From: a virus
Length of the DNA stretch: 36,052 nucleotides
Direction: 5' to 3' (one strand)
IMG/VR virus record: IMGVR_UViG_3300014808_000002
Under the pieces are notes generated by a model, which saw nothing but the letters and a program-made list of their open reading frames with translations, searched no databases and was not told where the DNA came from. Both the position numbers and the translations under genes were made by a program. Positions 1-36,052 of this stretch are shown one piece after another. How positions within the stretch are numbered: the first letter of the stretch is position 1; each line of letters opens with the position of its first letter.

Positions 1-118
1 CCATAATTACCAGCCGTGGCAGCACCACTATCACCAGCCGTGGCAGCACCACTATTACCAGCCGTGGCAGCACCACTATCACCAGCCGTGGCAGCACCTC
101 TATCACCAGCCGTGGCAG
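1..118. repeat. 24-bp tandem repeat, left part of the array (unit ccagccgtggcagcaccacNatNa)
   Basis: About 4.5 head-to-tail units are visible directly. They have no spacers and lie in frame inside the CDS, encoding AATAG(D/N)xG. Confidence 0.9.
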
Positions 119-12217: not shown

Positions 12218-13084
12218 TCAATTTTCTTCAAATCCTATAATCTTGTCTATGCCTTTGTCAAAATCATCATTTGATCTTATTTCTTTTATTTCACATTTCT
12301 GAGCTTTTGGTAATTGAAGTACCATTTTTTGGAGATATGGTATTGCTTTTATATCTTTTTTTAAAAAATATTGTTCAGCTTTTTGCAATAACCATTCATT
12401 GTTAAAATGTTCTCTAAAATCTGGCAATAACTCATTAGGATATAATCTTACGTTAGGAATCTTTCTTCCATCTCCATACTCATGTATATATGTTGGAAAT
12501 GTTGATGGGTCTATATTTTTCTCCTTTCTAAGCCAGTTGCAAAAAACTTTTCCTTCTGATATGTCTGGAACAAGTTTATCAGGCAGTGTATATCCCATTT
12601 CTTCTAAAGGAGCTATTAAGCTATATACAATTTCATTAAATACAGAGAAATACCCAACAGGTATTCTTCCTCTGTTTAGTAAATATCGCTGTAGATGATA
12701 AGGTATATTTTTCTTACTGAAAGAACCTTGCATCCATTCAAATACCCATTTTGTAACAAGAACAGCAAATTTAGGAGATACCCATTGAGCTAAATGAATA
12801 GCTATTTGAGGGTGTACCCAAGTTCCTTGAAACTGAGGAATACCGCCACTAACTATCTGAATTAGAGCCGATATGGGAATTCTCACCTCGGAGGATAACT
12901 CAGCATTAAACTCCGATGTAGTCTTTAATCTTTTATAATCAGCAAAATTTTTACCACATGCTTTACATAAAGATGTAGCATTTATATATCCATCTATCAG
13001 TCTTTGATTGATGTGAAAGTTGTCAACTTCTCTATCTATTACTGCAAGTTGCATTTGGAAGTTAGGTTCTTTTTTTTTATCCAT
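12218..13084 (-). CDS. KilA-N domain protein
   Basis: GYINATSLCKACGKNFADYKRLKTTSEF...GTWVHPQIAIHLAQWVSPKFAVLVTKWV is a classical KilA-N signature. It overlaps the transposase stop by 8 nt. Confidence 0.8.
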   Translation of the reverse strand: MDKKKEPNFQMQLAVIDREVDNFHINQRLIDGYINATSLCKACGKNFADYKRLKTTSEFNAELSSEVRIPISALIQIVSGGIPQFQGTWVHPQIAIHLAQWVSPKFAVLVTKWVFEWMQGSFSKKNIPYHLQRYLLNRGRIPVGYFSVFNEIVYSLIAPLEEMGYTLPDKLVPDISEGKVFCNWLRKEKNIDPSTFPTYIHEYGDGRKIPNVRLYPNELLPDFREHFNNEWLLQKAEQYFLKKDIKAIPYLQKMVLQLPKAQKCEIKEIRSNDDFDKGIDKIIGFEEN

Positions 13085-14030
13085 ATATCAATTCTTTATA
13101 AGTTAATCTACATTCAATATTCTGCAAGAATAAATCAAACCTTTCTTTGTCTGATAATAAGCGAGTGTTAAAACGATACACACACTCGTCAATATAACGT
13201 TGCATGTGTTGTTTAGACCAATGGTAGTATATACCCATAATACTTCTTTTCACTAAAGCCCAAAATCCTTCGATGTGATTTGTCGTCAGATCACCACTAC
13301 CATAAAATCCTGCTCCATGATTTACATTTCTATGGTTGTAGTAAATATTAGCCCTATCACTATAATTCCATTCGTCTGTATAAAGATTACTACCTTCTTT
13401 CACGTAATTATGAATAACAGAGAAAAGGGTATTTGATTTTGTGTCAGAAACAACTTTAGCAATAATCCTACCATTACGTTGAATCATTCCGAATACAGGT
13501 ATTTTATCTTTGAAACTTCTACCTTGACAAGCCTTTACTTTCTTGTCTGCATGACGATTTTTATTCTTCCCACCAATAAAAGTTTCATCTACCTCAATAG
13601 TACCACTCAATTTACCACCATCACTGTCATTATTGTCATCTTCATTTGACTTATCGTTTTCTATACCTAAAGCCTTTCTGATCCTGTGAAGCATAAACCA
13701 TGCAGTTTTCTGAGTTACCCCAATATCTTTACTTAATTGTATTGAAGATATACCTTTTTTGTGGGATAATACAAGCCATATAGCCATAAACCAATAAATT
13801 AAAGGTAGGGAGGTTTTATGAAAAATAAGTTTAGTCTTAACATTAAAGTATTTTCCAGTGTTTTTACAACGATATTTATTATCTTTGCATTTGTAGACTT
13901 TGGAAGTAGGATCAAAAGGGGAAACGACCTTTACACCCCACCTTCTTTCTTCCAGATAATCTATACAGTGCTGTTCTGTTGGGAAAGCATCTTGTAAATC
14001 TTTTAATGATTTGAATCTACTATTAAACAT
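13077..14030 (-). CDS. IS1595-family transposase (Zn-ribbon plus DDE)
   Basis: The N-terminal CxxYLE..RW...C..C zinc ribbon, IEVDETFIGGKNKNRH and NHIEGFWALVKRSIMGIYYHWSKQHMQRYIDECVYRFN match ISXO2-like/IS1595 transposases. Confidence 0.85.
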   Translation of the reverse strand: MFNSRFKSLKDLQDAFPTEQHCIDYLEERRWGVKVVSPFDPTSKVYKCKDNKYRCKNTGKYFNVKTKLIFHKTSLPLIYWFMAIWLVLSHKKGISSIQLSKDIGVTQKTAWFMLHRIRKALGIENDKSNEDDNNDSDGGKLSGTIEVDETFIGGKNKNRHADKKVKACQGRSFKDKIPVFGMIQRNGRIIAKVVSDTKSNTLFSVIHNYVKEGSNLYTDEWNYSDRANIYYNHRNVNHGAGFYGSGDLTTNHIEGFWALVKRSIMGIYYHWSKQHMQRYIDECVYRFNTRLLSDKERFDLFLQNIECRLTYKELIYG

Positions 14031-14503: not shown

Positions 14504-14941
14504 ATGGAAACAAGAGAACGTATTATTTCAGCTTACAACCATCTAAAAGATGTAGGTATTATATCATCTCAACAAAATGTTGCAGATAGAATGGGGATTA
14601 GAAAAGAAAGTGTATCTAAAGCGTTTAGTGGTAATAAAAGTTACCTAACCAATACTTTTATTCTTAAATTTAATAATGCTTTTGATAATATGTTTAATAA
14701 CGACTGGCTTATGGAAGGAAAAGGAGAAATGCTAAAAAACAATCAATCCATTGGAGATATCAAAAACTCAAGTGTACATGGGGTTAACGTAAACGGTAAG
14801 GATATATATTTAGAATGCCCATTCGACAAAAACGGTATGGAAATTATTGTGAATATGATTAATCAAAACCAAAAGAATATAGAAATGTTTCAAGAACAAA
14901 TAAACAGGTTGATTACATTATTGGAAAAGAAGTATAATTAA
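14504..14941 (+). CDS. CI-like phage repressor (HTH)
   Basis: SQQNVADRMGIRKESVSKAFSG forms the HTH, followed by the NDWLMEGKGEM motif typical of Bacteroidales phage repressors. It is the only plus-strand protein gene inside the minus arm apart from the small ORF at 31076..31210. Confidence 0.65.
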   Translation: METRERIISAYNHLKDVGIISSQQNVADRMGIRKESVSKAFSGNKSYLTNTFILKFNNAFDNMFNNDWLMEGKGEMLKNNQSIGDIKNSSVHGVNVNGKDIYLECPFDKNGMEIIVNMINQNQKNIEMFQEQINRLITLLEKKYN

Positions 14942-15723: not shown

Positions 15724-16515
15724 TTAAATGATGAATTTACCAGTCAGGAAACCGTTTATGAAGTAGGATTGGCCTTTCCCGGTAACTTTGGTTGTTATAG
15801 TAGTACGCAACACTCCATCATTGCCGGATCGTGTGCCTTTCTTTAATTCAAACAGACCTTGTTCAACATATTGCTGATTAGGTATATTTCTACGTTCACC
15901 AACACTTCCTAAATAATGATTATTGCGAAGCCACTCAAACAGTCTGTTCTGCCCAACATGGAATCCATTTTGAGATATTATCTTAGCCAGTTCGCCTATA
16001 AGACATGAAGAACGACTTCCTATTACAGCATCAGCAAACAGGACTTTCGGAGCTTGTTCTTCCACCTTCTTTTCTGCTTCAATCCGTTTCTGTTTTTCTT
16101 CTTTCAGAGTAGTAGCAAGTTGAATCAGAAAGTCGGGAGATGTAAGAGCCTTTTCTATAGTATCGGATGTCATATACGCACCGTACTTACGAATGGAGGG
16201 CAATATTTCATGTGTAACCCATCTTCTATACGGTTTTACTTTCTTGCTAGAACTAAAAAGAAGAACGTCATAGAAAGCTGATTCTGTTATAAACGTAGCA
16301 AATGAGTTCCCGTTCACGTATAAATCAGGATTTAGGGCGTGTAAATCAAGCAGTTGCAAATCTTCATCGTTTAATCTTGTTTTTACTGATGAAGGATTAC
16401 TCAACTCAACTGCATTGCAAACATCAGCTAAGCAGAAAAGCGGTTCTTCACTTGTTCCAGCTACTCGTACTTCGCCAAATACATCATTCTTAAATATTTT
16501 AATCGAATTATCCAT
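15724..16515 (-). CDS. BRO-N / KilAC (ANT) antirepressor-like protein 1
   Basis: The N-terminus FKNDVFGEVRVAGTSEEPLFCLADVCNAVEL is a BRO-N signature. The C-terminus APKVLFADAVIGS...GELAKII...NRLFEWLR is a KilAC/ANT signature. Confidence 0.8.
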   Translation of the reverse strand: MDNSIKIFKNDVFGEVRVAGTSEEPLFCLADVCNAVELSNPSSVKTRLNDEDLQLLDLHALNPDLYVNGNSFATFITESAFYDVLLFSSSKKVKPYRRWVTHEILPSIRKYGAYMTSDTIEKALTSPDFLIQLATTLKEEKQKRIEAEKKVEEQAPKVLFADAVIGSRSSCLIGELAKIISQNGFHVGQNRLFEWLRNNHYLGSVGERRNIPNQQYVEQGLFELKKGTRSGNDGVLRTTITTKVTGKGQSYFINGFLTGKFII

Positions 16516-16890
16516 ATAATAATATTAAAGTTTGCTCTTGTTATTCGTTATAGTTTATACCGTACCCTATCCCTCACCTACCTAATATTTAATTAGGAAG
16601 CTGGGTTAACATTCAGACTACATAATATATAACTGAATGTTTGTGCTGATTATACAGTTCCGCCCTCACCTGCCTAAGAGTCTTATCTCTTAACTTGTAT
16701 CTCGGTCTCTTGTCAAAGTGGTAAAATCTTTGTGAGTCGCCTGTCGTTGGTACGTGGAACGGAGCAGGACATTACAAGAGTTATAATCAACAGAAGAGCC
16801 TTTTTATCTCACGGCTGTCATTGGTTTTTGCCAAAGTTCCGCTCGGTGGGCACTGATAGAACCGATTGTGGATTTAATCTAACTTATAGG

Positions 16891-16931
16891 AAAGAAAAAA
16901 TCCGTTGCTAAAGTAGAGCGGCAACGGATTT
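16891..16931 (-). terminator. Leader terminator hairpin (attenuator) in the 5' leader of antirepressor 1
   Basis: Minus strand reads AAAUCCGUUGC-(12 nt)-GCAACGGAUUU followed by UUUUCUUUCC, about 380 nt upstream of the ATG at 16515. Confidence 0.6.
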
Positions 16932-16980
16932 CCAAATATAAAGAAGGCTCACGTTTGAGCGATTGTTTAATCATGTGTCT

Positions 16981-17000
16981 GTTGCCGCTCTACTTGCAAC
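16981..17000 (-). promoter_or_regulatory. Candidate anti-terminator segment
   Basis: Minus strand AAGUAGAGCGGCAAC (16995..16981) is perfectly complementary over 15 nt to GUUGCCGCUCUACUU (16925..16911). That stretch is the 5' arm plus loop of the terminator. Confidence 0.45.
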
Positions 17001-17144
17001 GGGTACAAAGGAATATGATTAACAAGAGATATCCAAAAGTGTTAACAATCGTGCGATATTCCGTTTAAGGCGGTTATAATCCGTTTTGGGTTGTTATGGT
17101 TGGTTATTGGGATTATCATATTTAAATTATTTAATAATATTAAA

Positions 17145-17190
17145 AACAAATAAACAAAAGCACTCTACTTATCGCAAGCAAAGTGCCTTT
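17145..17190 (-). terminator. Terminator after the 76-aa gene
   Basis: Minus strand reads AAAGGCACU-(17 nt)-AGUGCUUUU (9 bp, one G.U) followed by GUUUAUUUGUUUUU. Confidence 0.5.
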
Positions 17191-17225
17191 CTAATATGGG
17201 CGTTGGTCGTAACCCCAACGTGTTC

Positions 17226-17456
17226 TTATGCTAATTGTGGCAATATATTCACTTTAATCAACGCATCACGAAGAACAGATATAGTTGATAAATCATTCTT
17301 GAATACTTCGATGTTGTCCTCGGTAACAAGAGATGCGTAGTTGAGTATCAGTTGAGCAAGATCATCAGCAAGCTGCCTAGGTGATTCCATCTCATTGAAA
17401 AGTTCTTGAATACTGGACAAATCGTATTCTTTCTTGTTGCTTTTATTTAATTCCAT
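17226..17456 (-). CDS. Hypothetical protein
   Basis: 76-aa track ORF. Its last codons lie inside the 38-nt repeat R1. Confidence 0.6.
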   Translation of the reverse strand: MELNKSNKKEYDLSSIQELFNEMESPRQLADDLAQLILNYASLVTEDNIEVFKNDLSTISVLRDALIKVNILPQLA

Positions 17457-17578
17457 ATTTTTTGTGTATTTTAAAAATTTACAATCTATTAATTAACAAT
17501 GTTGCAAAATTGAACATGAAAGATGCACCCACCTCATAAGAAAAGTGGGGAAATGAATTTATGTGGCAAAAAACAAGG

Positions 17579-18433: not shown

Positions 18434-18523
18434 AAAATAAAAAAAATGCACCTACTACGAGCTGTCAAATCAACCATAGGGTTTATTTTGGAGGCGTTTC
18501 CGTATCTCCACTCGGTAGGTGCA
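18434..18523 (-). terminator. Long terminator-like stem-loop abutting the start codon of antirepressor 2
   Basis: Minus strand reads UGCACCUACCGAG-(49 nt)-CUCGUAGUAGGUGCA (13 bp, 2-nt bulge) followed by UUUUUUUUAUUUU and then AUG. Confidence 0.5.
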
Positions 18524-18671
18524 ATTCTTATATTATGATACTACTTGATATGTCTTGGCAAAAAAATAACTCCAATGATGAAGTCATAGGAGTTTGCCTC
18601 CCCTATAATTGATTTGACATTGCAAAGGAAAGCATTTATTTTGGAACTGCAAAACTTTGCAGCGTATTTTT

Positions 18672-18704
18672 TTCAAAAAAACCACGATAGTGTTTACCGT
18701 GGCT
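18672..18704 (-). terminator. Terminator after the lipoprotein gene
   Basis: Minus strand reads GCCACGG-(9 nt)-UCGUGGU followed by UUUUUUU. Confidence 0.5.
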
Positions 18705-18726
18705 TTATACTATAAATATGCTTTAA

Positions 18727-20343: not shown

Positions 20344-20369
20344 CAAAGTATGTTTTAAAGCATACTTTG
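20344..20369. promoter_or_regulatory. 26-bp palindrome upstream of the TA operon
   Basis: CAAAGTATG-ttttaaag-CATACTTTG spans the recombinase stop codon. Two TTTGTGAA direct repeats follow it toward the TA start. Confidence 0.4.
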
Positions 20370-21119
20370 GATATATTCAGTGCGTCTATTAATCTTAGTC
20401 CGTAGGGCAGTTAGGCGATTCCGGGTAAATTCTAAGCCACTGTGTGTACGGATGCCCCTTGCATTCAACCGTTCTACTACCTTGTCAATGTCTTGCGGAG
20501 TATTGCAGCCTTCCAACATGGCGGCTATCATATTATTCTTTTCATCGTTCATCGCTTCCTTTCTTCTCTTTTCCCCGTTCGCTTTACCGCCTTTTGCCTG
20601 TCCGGTGGTTGTTCCGCCCAAAGAGGTGCACCAGTTGCCGGACTTAGAATAAAATCCGCCTTCTTCCGCTATCTTTTTCTTTCTTGCTTCCAATGCAGCT
20701 TTAGTACGGTTCTTTATATTAAGCCGTTCTATCTTAGCAAAAGTTGCCATCATGGATAATTGCAGCTCTATAAGCGGATTCATGTCCGAGCAATCAATAT
20801 CAAGATTTACATTTGATATGATTAACCGCAAACCCTTTGGGGCGAAAAATTCGGCTATCATATCGCTAAGTTCGATAATTCCACCTCTTGTAAGGCGTGA
20901 AACTTCCGACACTATAATAGTATCTCCTTTATTCGTCTTTGATAACAATTCGGATAGGTTTCTTTTTTTGTATGAAACGCTTCCGCTTATCCCTTCATCG
21001 GAAATAATCTCATCAATTTGCAGCCCTTTTGATTCGGCATACTTTGCTATTATATTTCTCTGGCTTTGCGCGTCTTGTTCGTCCGTTGAAAAGCGGTGAT
21101 AAGCATATATCTTTCCCAT
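20355..21119 (-). CDS. Small serine recombinase (resolvase/invertase family)
   Basis: The N-terminus KIYAYHRFSTDEQD carries the catalytic Ser motif. Also present are DTIIVSEVSRLTRG and a C-terminal HTH-like region. Confidence 0.9.
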   Translation of the reverse strand: MGKIYAYHRFSTDEQDAQSQRNIIAKYAESKGLQIDEIISDEGISGSVSYKKRNLSELLSKTNKGDTIIVSEVSRLTRGGIIELSDMIAEFFAPKGLRLIISNVNLDIDCSDMNPLIELQLSMMATFAKIERLNIKNRTKAALEARKKKIAEEGGFYSKSGNWCTSLGGTTTGQAKGGKANGEKRRKEAMNDEKNNMIAAMLEGCNTPQDIDKVVERLNARGIRTHSGLEFTRNRLTALRTKINRRTEYIQSML

Positions 21120-24029: not shown

Positions 24030-24164
24030 AATGCTATATTTAAATTGTTAATAATTCAACCTTATAGCGTGATTAATAGCCTACTAATACCAGATACAGA
24101 CTATACACTCAATAGCTGGATGCTATCGTAATATCAGCAAACCAAAAAAATAAATGGAAGAATA

Positions 24165-24196
24165 TTTGCAAGAATCAAAATAGAAAAGTACCTTTG
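24165..24196 (+). promoter_or_regulatory. Bacteroidota-type promoter (-33 TTTG, -7 TACCTTTG)
   Basis: TTTG lies at 24165..24168 and TAnnTTTG at 24189..24196, with a 20-nt spacer. Confidence 0.5.
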
Positions 24197-24202
24197 CCCC
24201 GT

Positions 24203-24278
24203 GTGATAGGGATAGATACTTTAGTATTTTGATCCTTTGAGAGTCTTAATACTGGAATATTAAGACTCTCTTTTTATT
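24203..24278 (+). ncRNA. Candidate sRNA of about 75 nt
   Basis: The promoter above is followed after about 40 nt by a 13-bp perfect hairpin (24239..24251/24258..24270) and TTTTTATT. No ORF is present. Confidence 0.45.
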
Positions 24279-25082
24279 CCATTTGTCAATATATCATGTA
24301 TCACGCTTGCCTAATCAATGGATCTACTACCTATATCGTAGTGTCGTATCTCTCATCTTTCAACACTGTAAAATTACAAAATTATTATCATATAAACAAA
24401 GAAAATTGCACTTTTTTGTGTTGAATTTTCACATATAAATAGAGTTTATAGCATACACTTATCACTTGATATTATGCGATATAGAAACGTTTTATTTTGA
24501 TTCTCACAATGTGCCGTACTTACCACTCTGCCTTATATCGCCCTTATTAAAGCCGTCAGCAACGAATCAAACGAGCGTTAAAAGCCGTTGTAAGCATACC
24601 CCGCCCCCTGATCAGCCAGCCAGCCGACGACAACCGTCCTCTCCCGTTTTTTTTTAAATTTTTTTCTGAATTTTCGCGTCTTGCAATGTTGCAATATTTC
24701 GCATCTACAACATAATTTATTATGTAAAATAATATTATTCATCATTATATCAATATTCATGTTTTACGTTGATGCTTTCCTATGCAGATTGCTTTTATTC
24801 CCCTTTGTTTATTTAAATAATCAAAGGGAGTGAGGTGTTCGCTGTGCTCACTCTTTCTTTATGTTACTTTCTTTCTATGTATTTTGGATTAGACATTTTT
24901 CCTTTATTTATATAGGGTATGTCTAATATGCAATGATGTAGTACTATGCAATACAAAGTACAGATATCAATATTTCAAATATGCTTTTACTTTTAAGATT
25001 AAAAACTTAATATTGAAACGGATTTAAATATATCATAGTGATAAATATTAAAGTAAAGCTTTAATATATGAATTTAATTAAT

Positions 25083-25090
25083 TATATTTG
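25083..25090 (+). promoter_or_regulatory. -7 box (TATATTTG) for the plus arm
   Basis: It matches TAnnTTTG and lies 22 nt upstream of the ATG at 25112. Confidence 0.45.
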
Positions 25091-25111
25091 CGTGTATTAT
25101 TATATTATAAT

Positions 25112-35689: not shown

Positions 35690-36052
35690 TTAATCAACCT
35701 CCACTAATTCACCGTTTTCCAGTCTATACCATGTATCAGCCTTGACAACCTCACCATCAACTACTACAGCCTTCCAATCAACAATATCATACGTATCTTC
35801 CTTTTCCTCAGCTATGACCAAAATTGCACCTATTCCGCCTTTTACCTGAACATTGTTACCTCTTGCCACTGACAAACCATTTGATCCGGTTGAAGCCTTT
35901 CCTCTTGCCGTGGCAGCACCACAATCACCAGCCGTGGCAGCACCACAATTACCAGCCGTGGCAGCACCACAATTACCAGCCGTGGCAGCACCACAATTAC
36001 CAGCCGTGGCAGCACCATAATTACCAGCCGTGGCAGCACCACTATCACCAGC
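35690..36052 (-). CDS. Repeat-containing phage protein, 3' part (repeat units plus C-terminal domain)
   Basis: In the frame of track ORF 35690..35875, the upstream sequence reads ...GAATAGNCGAATAGNCGAATAGDCGAATARGKASTGSNGLSVARGNNVQVKGG.... There is no stop up to the window end, and the phase is continuous with 1..467. Confidence 0.75.
   Translation of the reverse strand, partial: AGDSGAATAGNYGAATAGNCGAATAGNCGAATAGNCGAATAGDCGAATARGKASTGSNGLSVARGNNVQVKGGIGAILVIAEEKEDTYDIVDWKAVVVDGEVVKADTWYRLENGELVEVD
35907..36052. repeat. 24-bp tandem repeat, right part of the array
   Basis: Six units are present. The last 38 nt are identical to window positions 1..38. Confidence 0.9.

Follow-up and report, generated by a model that had tools for sequence, protein, structure and literature searches.

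Phage antirepressor and early operons are, in several well-described systems, controlled by the RNA that leads into them. In phages P4 (CI) and N15 (CA), an RNA encoded in the leader can pair, through a box of its own, with other boxes of that leader, and this pairing brings about premature termination upstream of the antirepressor or early genes; the boxes differ between heteroimmune relatives, and the RNAs, once released from the leader by processing, act on separate boxes upstream and downstream. In phage lambda, a strong terminator (tR') lies some 100-200 nt past the PR' promoter, and transcription yields a short RNA, 6S, unless the polymerase has been modified, as in the case of Q. In the isrK-orf45-anrP region of Gifsy-1, the promoter-proximal small RNA (sRNA) IsrK ends at a leaky terminator, and read-through yields the antirepressor mRNA (PMC4825925). 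Here we analyze a leader element in the IMG/VR virus record IMGVR_UViG_3300014808_000002, a stretch of 36,052 nt that is referred to as a whole as the window. A predicted Bacteroidota promoter, a conserved RNA of about 110 nt and an intrinsic terminator lie there, on the minus strand, between an upstream operon and the gene for an antirepressor-like protein, antirepressor 1. The best-supported reading of this element, to which we assign a probability of about 0.5, is that of a portable, kinetically controlled attenuator cassette, the terminator of which would normally be effective and would be read through by way of a competing helix formed during transcription.

Gene regulation in Bacteroidota phages is almost unexplored, and their hosts, which have unusual promoters, do without translation control based on Shine-Dalgarno sequences. 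The cassette heads early or accessory operons, often directly opposite a repressor gene, and would be a general control point for early and accessory genes that are in part antirepressor-like.

Results

The core of the element is an 11-bp hairpin followed by a U-tract at 16931..16891, exactly where a first-pass annotation, made from the sequence alone, had placed it (features are on the minus strand unless stated otherwise). In the stem, AAATCCGTTGC (16931..16921) pairs with GCAACGGATTT (16908..16898) over 11 bp with a 100% match around a 12-nt loop, and the T-tract TTTTTTCTTT (16900..16891) comes directly after it. The loop is the sole reason why this terminator, here called T, went unflagged by a generic terminator scanner, which has a loop limit of 8 nt. 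The same annotation had drawn attention to a complementary segment upstream, and AAGTAGAGCGGCAAC (16995..16981) is indeed perfectly complementary to 16925..16911 over 15 nt, or over 18 nt at 94% when the match is extended. By our estimate, the chance expectation of a perfect 15-nt complement within about 100 nt is some 5e-6, and this one is conserved in at least 117 contigs. Inverted repeats (16995..16981 against 16925..16911) flank a short central segment, and the minus strand reads CCGTTGC-AAGTAGAGCG-GCAAC (17002..16981) and, seventy-odd bases on, AAATCC-GTTGC-CGCTCTACTTTA-GCAAC-GGATTT (16931..16898). The features of the region, in the direction of transcription, are the following.

17456..17226, minus strand: gene for a 76-aa protein, followed by the terminator at 17190..17156
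17190..17156, minus strand: strong intrinsic terminator closing the preceding operon (antirepressor 2 plus the 76-aa gene), a 16-pair stem and then a T-run
17037..17006, minus strand: predicted Bacteroidota sigma-A-type promoter, called from its match to the consensus
17005..16890, minus strand: conserved leader RNA of about 105-115 nt, with H1, H2, terminator T and the U-tract; covariance model R1, 135 bits
17002..16981, minus strand: 5' segment, with arm A, CCGUUGC (17002..16996), patch and loop AAGUAGAGCG (16995..16986) and GCAAC (16985..16981)
16960..16947, minus strand: central hairpin H2, GCUC-AAACGU-GAGC, from hairpin scan and covariation
16931..16891, minus strand: terminator T, with 5' arm AAAUCCGUUGC (16931..16921), loop CGCUCUACUUUA (16920..16909), 3' arm GCAACGGAUUU (16908..16898) and U-tract to 16891
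16889..16782, minus strand: post-terminator block "class A", conserved in many loci but exchanged for unrelated sequence in others, containing ACAAUCGGUU and a UUGG-loop-CCAA hairpin with a variable loop
16781..16516, minus strand: mosaic rest of the 5' untranslated region (UTR), with swap points at about 16782 and about 16556
16515..15724, minus strand: cargo gene for an antirepressor-like protein of 263 aa (antirepressor 1), with Bro-N (7e-13) and ANT/KilAC (6e-32) domains

A pattern scan of IMG/VR that prescribed the arms but allowed any bases in the inner 10 and 12 nt located the leader module in at least 117 contigs, and 26 distinct core variants are found among the matches listed; the numbers of copies (129), loci (128 or 104), variants (26) and promoter types (19) given below all refer to those matches. 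Terminator T is kept in every copy, the 11-bp stem being 100% paired with a single G-U and followed by a T-run of 5-10. The covariance model R1, built from the 26 core variants, recognizes a single copy in the window, and its search of the window and of 53 related loci returned exactly one copy per locus, reverse-strand matches being the palindrome itself.

The RNA can adopt two complete folds. In fold T, H1 (GUUGC/GCAAC), H2 and the 11-bp terminator form together, and the loops of H1 and T are mutually complementary. In fold E, CCGUUGC-AAGUAGAGCGGCAAC pairs with GUUGCCGCUCUACUU-UA-GCAACGG to form a helix of about 24 bp, at the top of which lies a conserved apical domain of some 50 nt; the long-range partner of the 5' segment (17002..16981) is 16925..16902. 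Across the 26 variants, 99.3% of the cells of fold E are paired. A covariation analysis of homologous leaders, which the first-pass annotation had proposed, supports both the long-range helix and H2. Four pairs of E (15-95, 16-94, 17-93 and 19-91) are altered on both sides, for instance from A-U to C-G or from G-C to A-U, and the covariation score of E (0.129) compares with 0.045 +/- 0.007 in shuffles, none of 500 of which reaches it, and with at most 0.042 in slid controls. H2 has one compensated pair (52-61), for which 16 variants show CG and the other 10 UA (GCCC...GGGC versus GCUC...GAGC). The variation of E resides in a patch of 5-6 nt between the arms, of which there are 9 types, nearly all of them with a matching partner on the opposite side; one type can replace another while the sequence around it stays identical, and the types are shuffled relative to promoter type.

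The arms behave differently from this patch. A second scan of IMG/VR, anchored on the central loop only and leaving the arms unconstrained, again covered at least 117 contigs and found 6 complete copies with an arm change, each of them single and none compensated; two of the six are C-to-U changes that give G-U in the outermost pairs of the A:A' helix. These two changes, together with the one G-U in the T stem, fit RNA pairing. If each arm nucleotide has two partners, one in H1 or T and one in E, near-frozen arms are to be expected, and the combination of frozen arms with a covarying patch fits selection on both folds, even if the DNA palindrome may generate some of the matched changes.

The computed energies of the two folds are -47.3 kcal/mol for E and -27.7 kcal/mol for T, and E is the minimum-energy fold of every growing prefix. 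Along the direct path, the passage from H1 to E on the nascent RNA meets a barrier of about 10 kcal/mol, and the later conversion of T into E one of about 18 kcal/mol. We estimate that a barrier of 10 kcal/mol is crossed in roughly 1 s or more, no faster than the last 15 nt or so are transcribed, and barriers of this order make a kinetic competition between the folds plausible. The first-pass annotation had considered the two structures mutually exclusive, after the logic of an attenuator. The terminator and its competing segment are real, conserved as a unit and marked by compensatory changes, but their exclusivity is not secure, because the 24-bp helix of E may end beside the U-tract.

The leader is placed as a 5' leader should be, directly behind a good predicted Bacteroidota promoter and read through to reach the antirepressor gene. 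The Bacteroidota consensus is TAnnTTTG (PMC7366714), the published position of which (PMC9723704) is -12..-5; in the window, a -33 TTTG (17037..17034) is separated by a 20-nt spacer from the -7 box TTCCTTTG (17013..17006), and transcription would start somewhere in 17004..17000. Among the matches listed, the 60 nt upstream of the element fall into 19 unrelated sequence types. In all 19 the -7 box ends exactly 3 nt before CCGTTGC, with a perfect TAnnTTTG in 16, and a -33 TTTG or a 3-of-4 match to it is found in every type (spacers of 16-23 nt were scanned), nearly always at 18-20 nt. Because the upstream operon has a terminator of its own (17190..17156), from which an A+T-rich stretch extends to the promoter, the leader is a separate transcription unit. 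Two tandem 20-bp direct repeats at 17056-17095 (AACnnCCnnAAACGGAnTAT, minus strand, 75% identical) adjoin the -33 element on its upstream side and may be a regulator binding site.

Many promoter types hold a perfect palindrome in the promoter spacer, and in 46 of the 128 listed loci the type-specific palindrome recurs 1.3-2.7 kb downstream; these palindromes look like the operator sets of heteroimmune phages. As an example, ATACAGTA-AAA-TACTGTAT, in the promoter spacers of loci L014-L125, overlaps the leader promoter and recurs near a second early promoter. Nearly half of the loci (49 of the 104 listed) have a divergent gene for an XRE-like repressor (motif NANYILTGxG) that starts 20-80 nt upstream, so that transcription of the opposing operon begins with the element. 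Taken together, the divergent repressor and the recurring palindromes make the element the leader of a repressor-controlled early operon in those phages. With the promoter type of the window itself, the cassette sits instead behind another operon.

The gene behind the gap was rightly called a Bro-N/KilAC gene, both domains being found in its product, and the index of the assembly collection lists a protein identical to antirepressor 1 in 1751 blocks, with several different contexts among them. Yet the proposal that the leader gates antirepressor expression, and hence induction, in particular is not sustained by the comparison of loci. The first ORF (open reading frame) past the element may encode a Bro-N/ANT protein, as in the window, or a pRha fragment, an RNase H, an HNH, a T5orf172/MUG113, a DUF559, a helix-turn-helix (HTH)-like or an unknown protein, at 18-460 nt downstream, and cargo so varied shows that the element is not confined to antirepressors. 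For two classes of cargo, the ORF start lies only 18-29 nt beyond the terminator arm GCAACGG, about 10-20 nt past the T-run. Such ORFs can be expressed only by read-through, which argues for a terminator that acts as a gate rather than one that just ends an sRNA gene.

The element is much smaller than the region in which it was first noticed. The largest ORF-free gap of the window, according to the ORF listing of the whole window, spans 710 nt (16516..17225), and the first-pass annotation had taken about 650 nt of it for a functional leader. Ten loci with an identical antirepressor were compared and proved to be mosaic, only 17019..16782 being common whatever lies upstream, while in other loci 16782..16556, or everything past 16860, is swapped for unrelated sequence. 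The functional unit is about 150 nt, that is, the promoter and the RNA of about 110 nt. The remainder of the UTR (16885..16516, about 375 nt) shows no significant structure (fold z = -1.44). A large non-coding RNA, an intron or a recoded gene filling the whole 650 nt was considered and dropped, as conservation is limited to 17019..16782 and the rest is swapped between loci.

Two smaller features that had been reported in this UTR do exist: a 9-bp hairpin at 16641..16608, recovered by the inverted-repeat scan, and two copies of a TAGG(C/T)AGGTGAGGG box, at 16676..16663 and 16584..16571, against 0.1 expected in the window. As RNA, the TAGG(C/U)AGGUGAGGG boxes lie 92 nt apart and have neither further copies nor a complement in the window, and pairing of these boxes with the leader or with the c4-2 RNA described below was not detected.

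An Rfam scan, also proposed in the first-pass annotation, gave no family match at the leader. Run on the window and on 16300..17500 at E <= 10, it returned nothing relevant, the best hits being chance miRNA and snoRNA models with 20-21 bits against gathering thresholds of 40-84, and the leaders of related loci gave no match either. In particular, the c4 clan (CL00128: C4, c4-2) has no match in 16300..17500 at E <= 10, and R1 scores c4-2 at just 10.8 bits. A true c4-2 copy (RF02944, 45.7 bits) lies at 18444..18524 (minus strand), ahead of antirepressor 2, and is also present in related loci; its pairing with the antirepressor 1 UTR is at chance level. Upstream of this copy, the stretch 18525-18726 (minus strand) contains a box complementary to the c4-2 loops, with a duplex energy of -55 kcal/mol versus -30.7 +/- 4 kcal/mol in shuffles, which resembles the a1/b1 boxes upstream of P1 c4.

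The carriers of the leader are a group of uncultured temperate Bacteroidota gut phages. The element is known from viral or metagenome contigs of uncultured human-gut origin and from one NCBI assembly. Scanning 185,579 species-representative genomes with the central motif gave 5 matches, none of which is recognized by the covariance model and which are taken as chance, and among GenBank phages a single unannotated fragment and no cultured relative were found. In L028 (2766-3180), and likewise in L015, L020 and L003, the leader is followed by a different stretch of 330-400 nt, richer in G+C, which contains long hairpins as well as GNRA-like loops and precedes RNase H or HNH genes. This stretch has a fold z-score of -3.3 and no Rfam match, and may be a second uncharacterized structured RNA.

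Some further features of the window lie away from the leader. The description of the genome as otherwise gap-free is only roughly true: a second stretch of about 1 kb (24030..25099) is also ORF-poor, contains many short palindromes and an imperfect 29-nt inverted repeat (24170-24237), and may be a control region or origin. A 24-nt tandem repeat (about GCCGTGGCAGCACCAC plus 8 nt) is common to both ends of the window (9-118 and 35907-36052, with 4.6 and 6.1 copies), and the window, about 36 kb long, may represent a circular contig opened within a repeat-bearing gene. The only plus-strand gene of the region (14504-14941, 145 aa) has no Pfam match, and its product ends in a repressor-like WLMEGKG motif at the C terminus. 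Between this gene and a KilA-N gene lies an IS1595-family transposase gene (13077-14030, minus strand; DDE_Tnp_IS1595, 5e-45), probably an insertion into the early region. A gene resembling serine recombinases and DNA invertases (20355-21119, minus strand; phrog_125, 3e-30) is found 3.4 kb from the leader and is probably unrelated to it, as no inverted form of the leader was found.

Discussion

In the attenuator that we favor, every transcript heading for the downstream gene, here antirepressor 1, would have to pass terminator T. H1 would form first and delay E, the local terminator would then usually win, and the short leader RNA so released would later relax into the stable E hairpin. Were E to form during transcription, it would sequester the 5' arm of the terminator, and some polymerases would read into the cargo gene. 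Such co-transcriptional folding may be triggered when the polymerase slows or pauses, when H1 is opened or when a factor binds, and candidate inputs are polymerase speed, pausing, elongation factors and a conserved factor that would bind the invariant apical domain. The sequence features, the promoter consensus, the covariation of E, the near-invariant arms common to both folds and the modular spread are observed; where transcription starts, that T terminates, that E permits read-through and that the choice is kinetic is what we infer. Context lends this reading some support, as the neighboring gene, antirepressor 2, likewise has an RNA gate, c4-2.

Several observations weigh against it. The arms were fixed by the first search pattern, and their invariance therefore rests on the arm-unconstrained scan of at least 117 contigs. 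The compensated changes of the patch are all Watson-Crick on both DNA strands, with no G-U intermediates, and template switching or gene conversion in a DNA quasi-palindrome could yield the same pattern without selection at the RNA level. The promoter is a prediction from its consensus, and an operator common to the leader promoter and the immunity region of the window does not rise above chance, although for other promoter types it is clear. No defined input was found, the leader ORF not being conserved and Rfam giving no aptamer match, and the computed stability of E (-47 kcal/mol) would make a ligand-type input implausible. There is, finally, the matter of the closing helix. In E the freed 5' CCGUUGC pairs with GCAACGG, and the long helix ends one base before U6 (AUUUUUU), so that the outcome hinges on the exact start within 17004..17000. 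With a start at 17004..17002, E would keep all 7 closing base pairs beside the U-tract and would itself resemble a terminator, leaving no ON state in cis; with a start at about 17001..17000, as the published -7 position would have it, the closing helix would be reduced to 5-6 bp, with GGA before the U-tract, and would make a poor terminator.

The alternatives differ in what they make of the same palindrome. The leader might be a stand-alone sRNA gene, whose stable hairpin RNA of about 110 nt acts mainly in trans, like P1 c4, P4 CI, N15 CA or Gifsy-1 IsrK, either on the read-through transcript or, by loop-loop kissing, on nascent leaders of the same patch type, with type-specific RNA immunity or cross-talk as the result. 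The element comes with a promoter and a terminator, its 5' and 3' ends pair with each other in the manner of stable sRNAs, the H1 and T loops are exactly complementary, and the matched diversification of the patch in identical backgrounds (9 types) resembles that of antisense specificity determinants; precedents upstream of antirepressor genes are at hand in the c4-2 of the window and in IsrK (PMC4825925). Against this, the flanks of the 129 listed copies hold no third copy of the patch or its complement (3 stray matches at 1 mismatch), pairing of the leader with the antirepressor 1 UTR and start is at chance (-18.0 versus a shuffle mean of -18.4 kcal/mol, a value reached by 14 of 30 shuffles), the relaxed E fold buries both loops in duplex, and a terminator that must be read through by genes starting about 20 nt beyond it cannot simply mark the end of a gene. 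We regard a mainly trans-acting sRNA as rather unlikely. A more specific proposal, in which terminated leaders, or those of a co-resident phage, kiss nascent leaders through the complementary H1 and T loops and so decide on termination according to patch type, seems to us less probable still; if it were true, the rapidly covarying patch would be an immunity or compatibility code at the RNA level among heteroimmune Bacteroidota phages, above that of the protein repressors.

It is equally doubtful, to about the degree of the trans-acting sRNA, that the element is a constitutive damper, in which a leaky terminator and a stable 5' stem or RNase III site would set a low, fixed expression of potentially toxic accessory genes and the two folds would be a by-product of the palindrome. 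The cargo (nucleases and antirepressor-like proteins) is plausibly harmful at high dose, no sensor, ligand pocket or partner was found, and E is a near-perfect 24-bp duplex of the kind that RNase III would be expected to cleave; a plain terminator, however, needs neither a complementary 5' segment nor a strictly conserved 50-nt apical domain, and the frozen arms with their covarying patch point to selection on both folds. That RNA folding is irrelevant, and that the two 22-24-bp inverted sites are operators for a DNA-binding protein, recombinase core sites that make up an invertible switch, or a quasi-palindrome whose symmetry is maintained by template switching, we consider improbable. In each site a 7-bp inverted repeat encloses an asymmetric spacer, one site is the inverted copy of the other, the compensated changes are perfectly Watson-Crick, as DNA symmetry would give, and a serine recombinase gene lies 3.4 kb away. 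But the flipped central segment occurs in 0 IMG/VR contigs as opposed to at least 117 with the native orientation, the spacer of one site is 2 nt different from that of the other, the element invariably stands between promoter and T-run on one strand only, H2 covaries, and G-U-compatible single changes occur. Dimeric DNA binders, moreover, usually read the arms of their sites, whereas the variation here is in the center. Least probable of all, to the point of being hardly credible, is ribosome-coupled attenuation, in which translation of a leader peptide through the terminator would decide the fold. The 31-codon leader ORF postulated in the first-pass annotation does exist (16974..16879), its ATG at 16974 opening a frame that runs through the terminator, but it is not conserved: in 45 of the 129 listed copies the frame ends after 6 codons, in 9 of them start and frame are others, indels of 3-4 nt fall within it, and no codon-level pattern of conservation is visible.

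The natural matched variants of two short boxes provide a clean, mutable test system for kinetic RNA switches and for intrinsic termination by the RNA polymerase of Bacteroides, and the cassette could serve as an engineering part for gut commensals. Recognition in trans, should it prove true, would mean that heteroimmunity among gut phages also has a component at the RNA level.

The leader belongs to no Rfam family and appears to work like the known leader-RNA controls of phage antirepressor and early operons and like terminator/antiterminator switches. With the P1/P7 c4 antisense RNA and the Rfam family c4-2 (RF02944), which control ant antirepressor genes, it has in common that a small structured RNA directly precedes a Bro-N/ANT antirepressor gene and is encoded in the direction of that gene, and that short complementary boxes have a variable, matched specificity; unlike in c4, both boxes are inside the RNA and not at the start region of the target gene, and the leader has its own promoter and intrinsic terminator and is not restricted to antirepressor genes. 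IsrK is likewise an sRNA with a leaky terminator ahead of an antirepressor; it acts in trans on its own read-through isoform and activates translation, whereas no such pairing is detectable for the leader, and the two have no sequence relationship. By comparison with P4 CI and N15 CA, the leader has just two boxes, both in one RNA of about 110 nt, and a protein repressor is present besides. In classical attenuators and ON-riboswitch platforms of the trp, pyr and pbuE type, an upstream segment competes for the 5' arm of the terminator in the same way, and H1 can act as an anti-antiterminator; the leader departs from them in having no conserved leader peptide or known aptamer, and its helix of 17-24 bp would be too stable for a ligand and may rebuild a stem at the U-tract. 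The PR'-tR' region of lambda also combines a conserved leader with a varying specificity of the neighboring regulators, but for the present leader no Q-like protein or binding element was identified, and a two-fold RNA design is no feature of tR'. What distinguishes the leader from all of these is the four-fold reuse of one arm sequence to give two complete folds, the covarying patch in the loop, and a modular spread behind 19 promoter types and ahead of at least 8 families of cargo genes.

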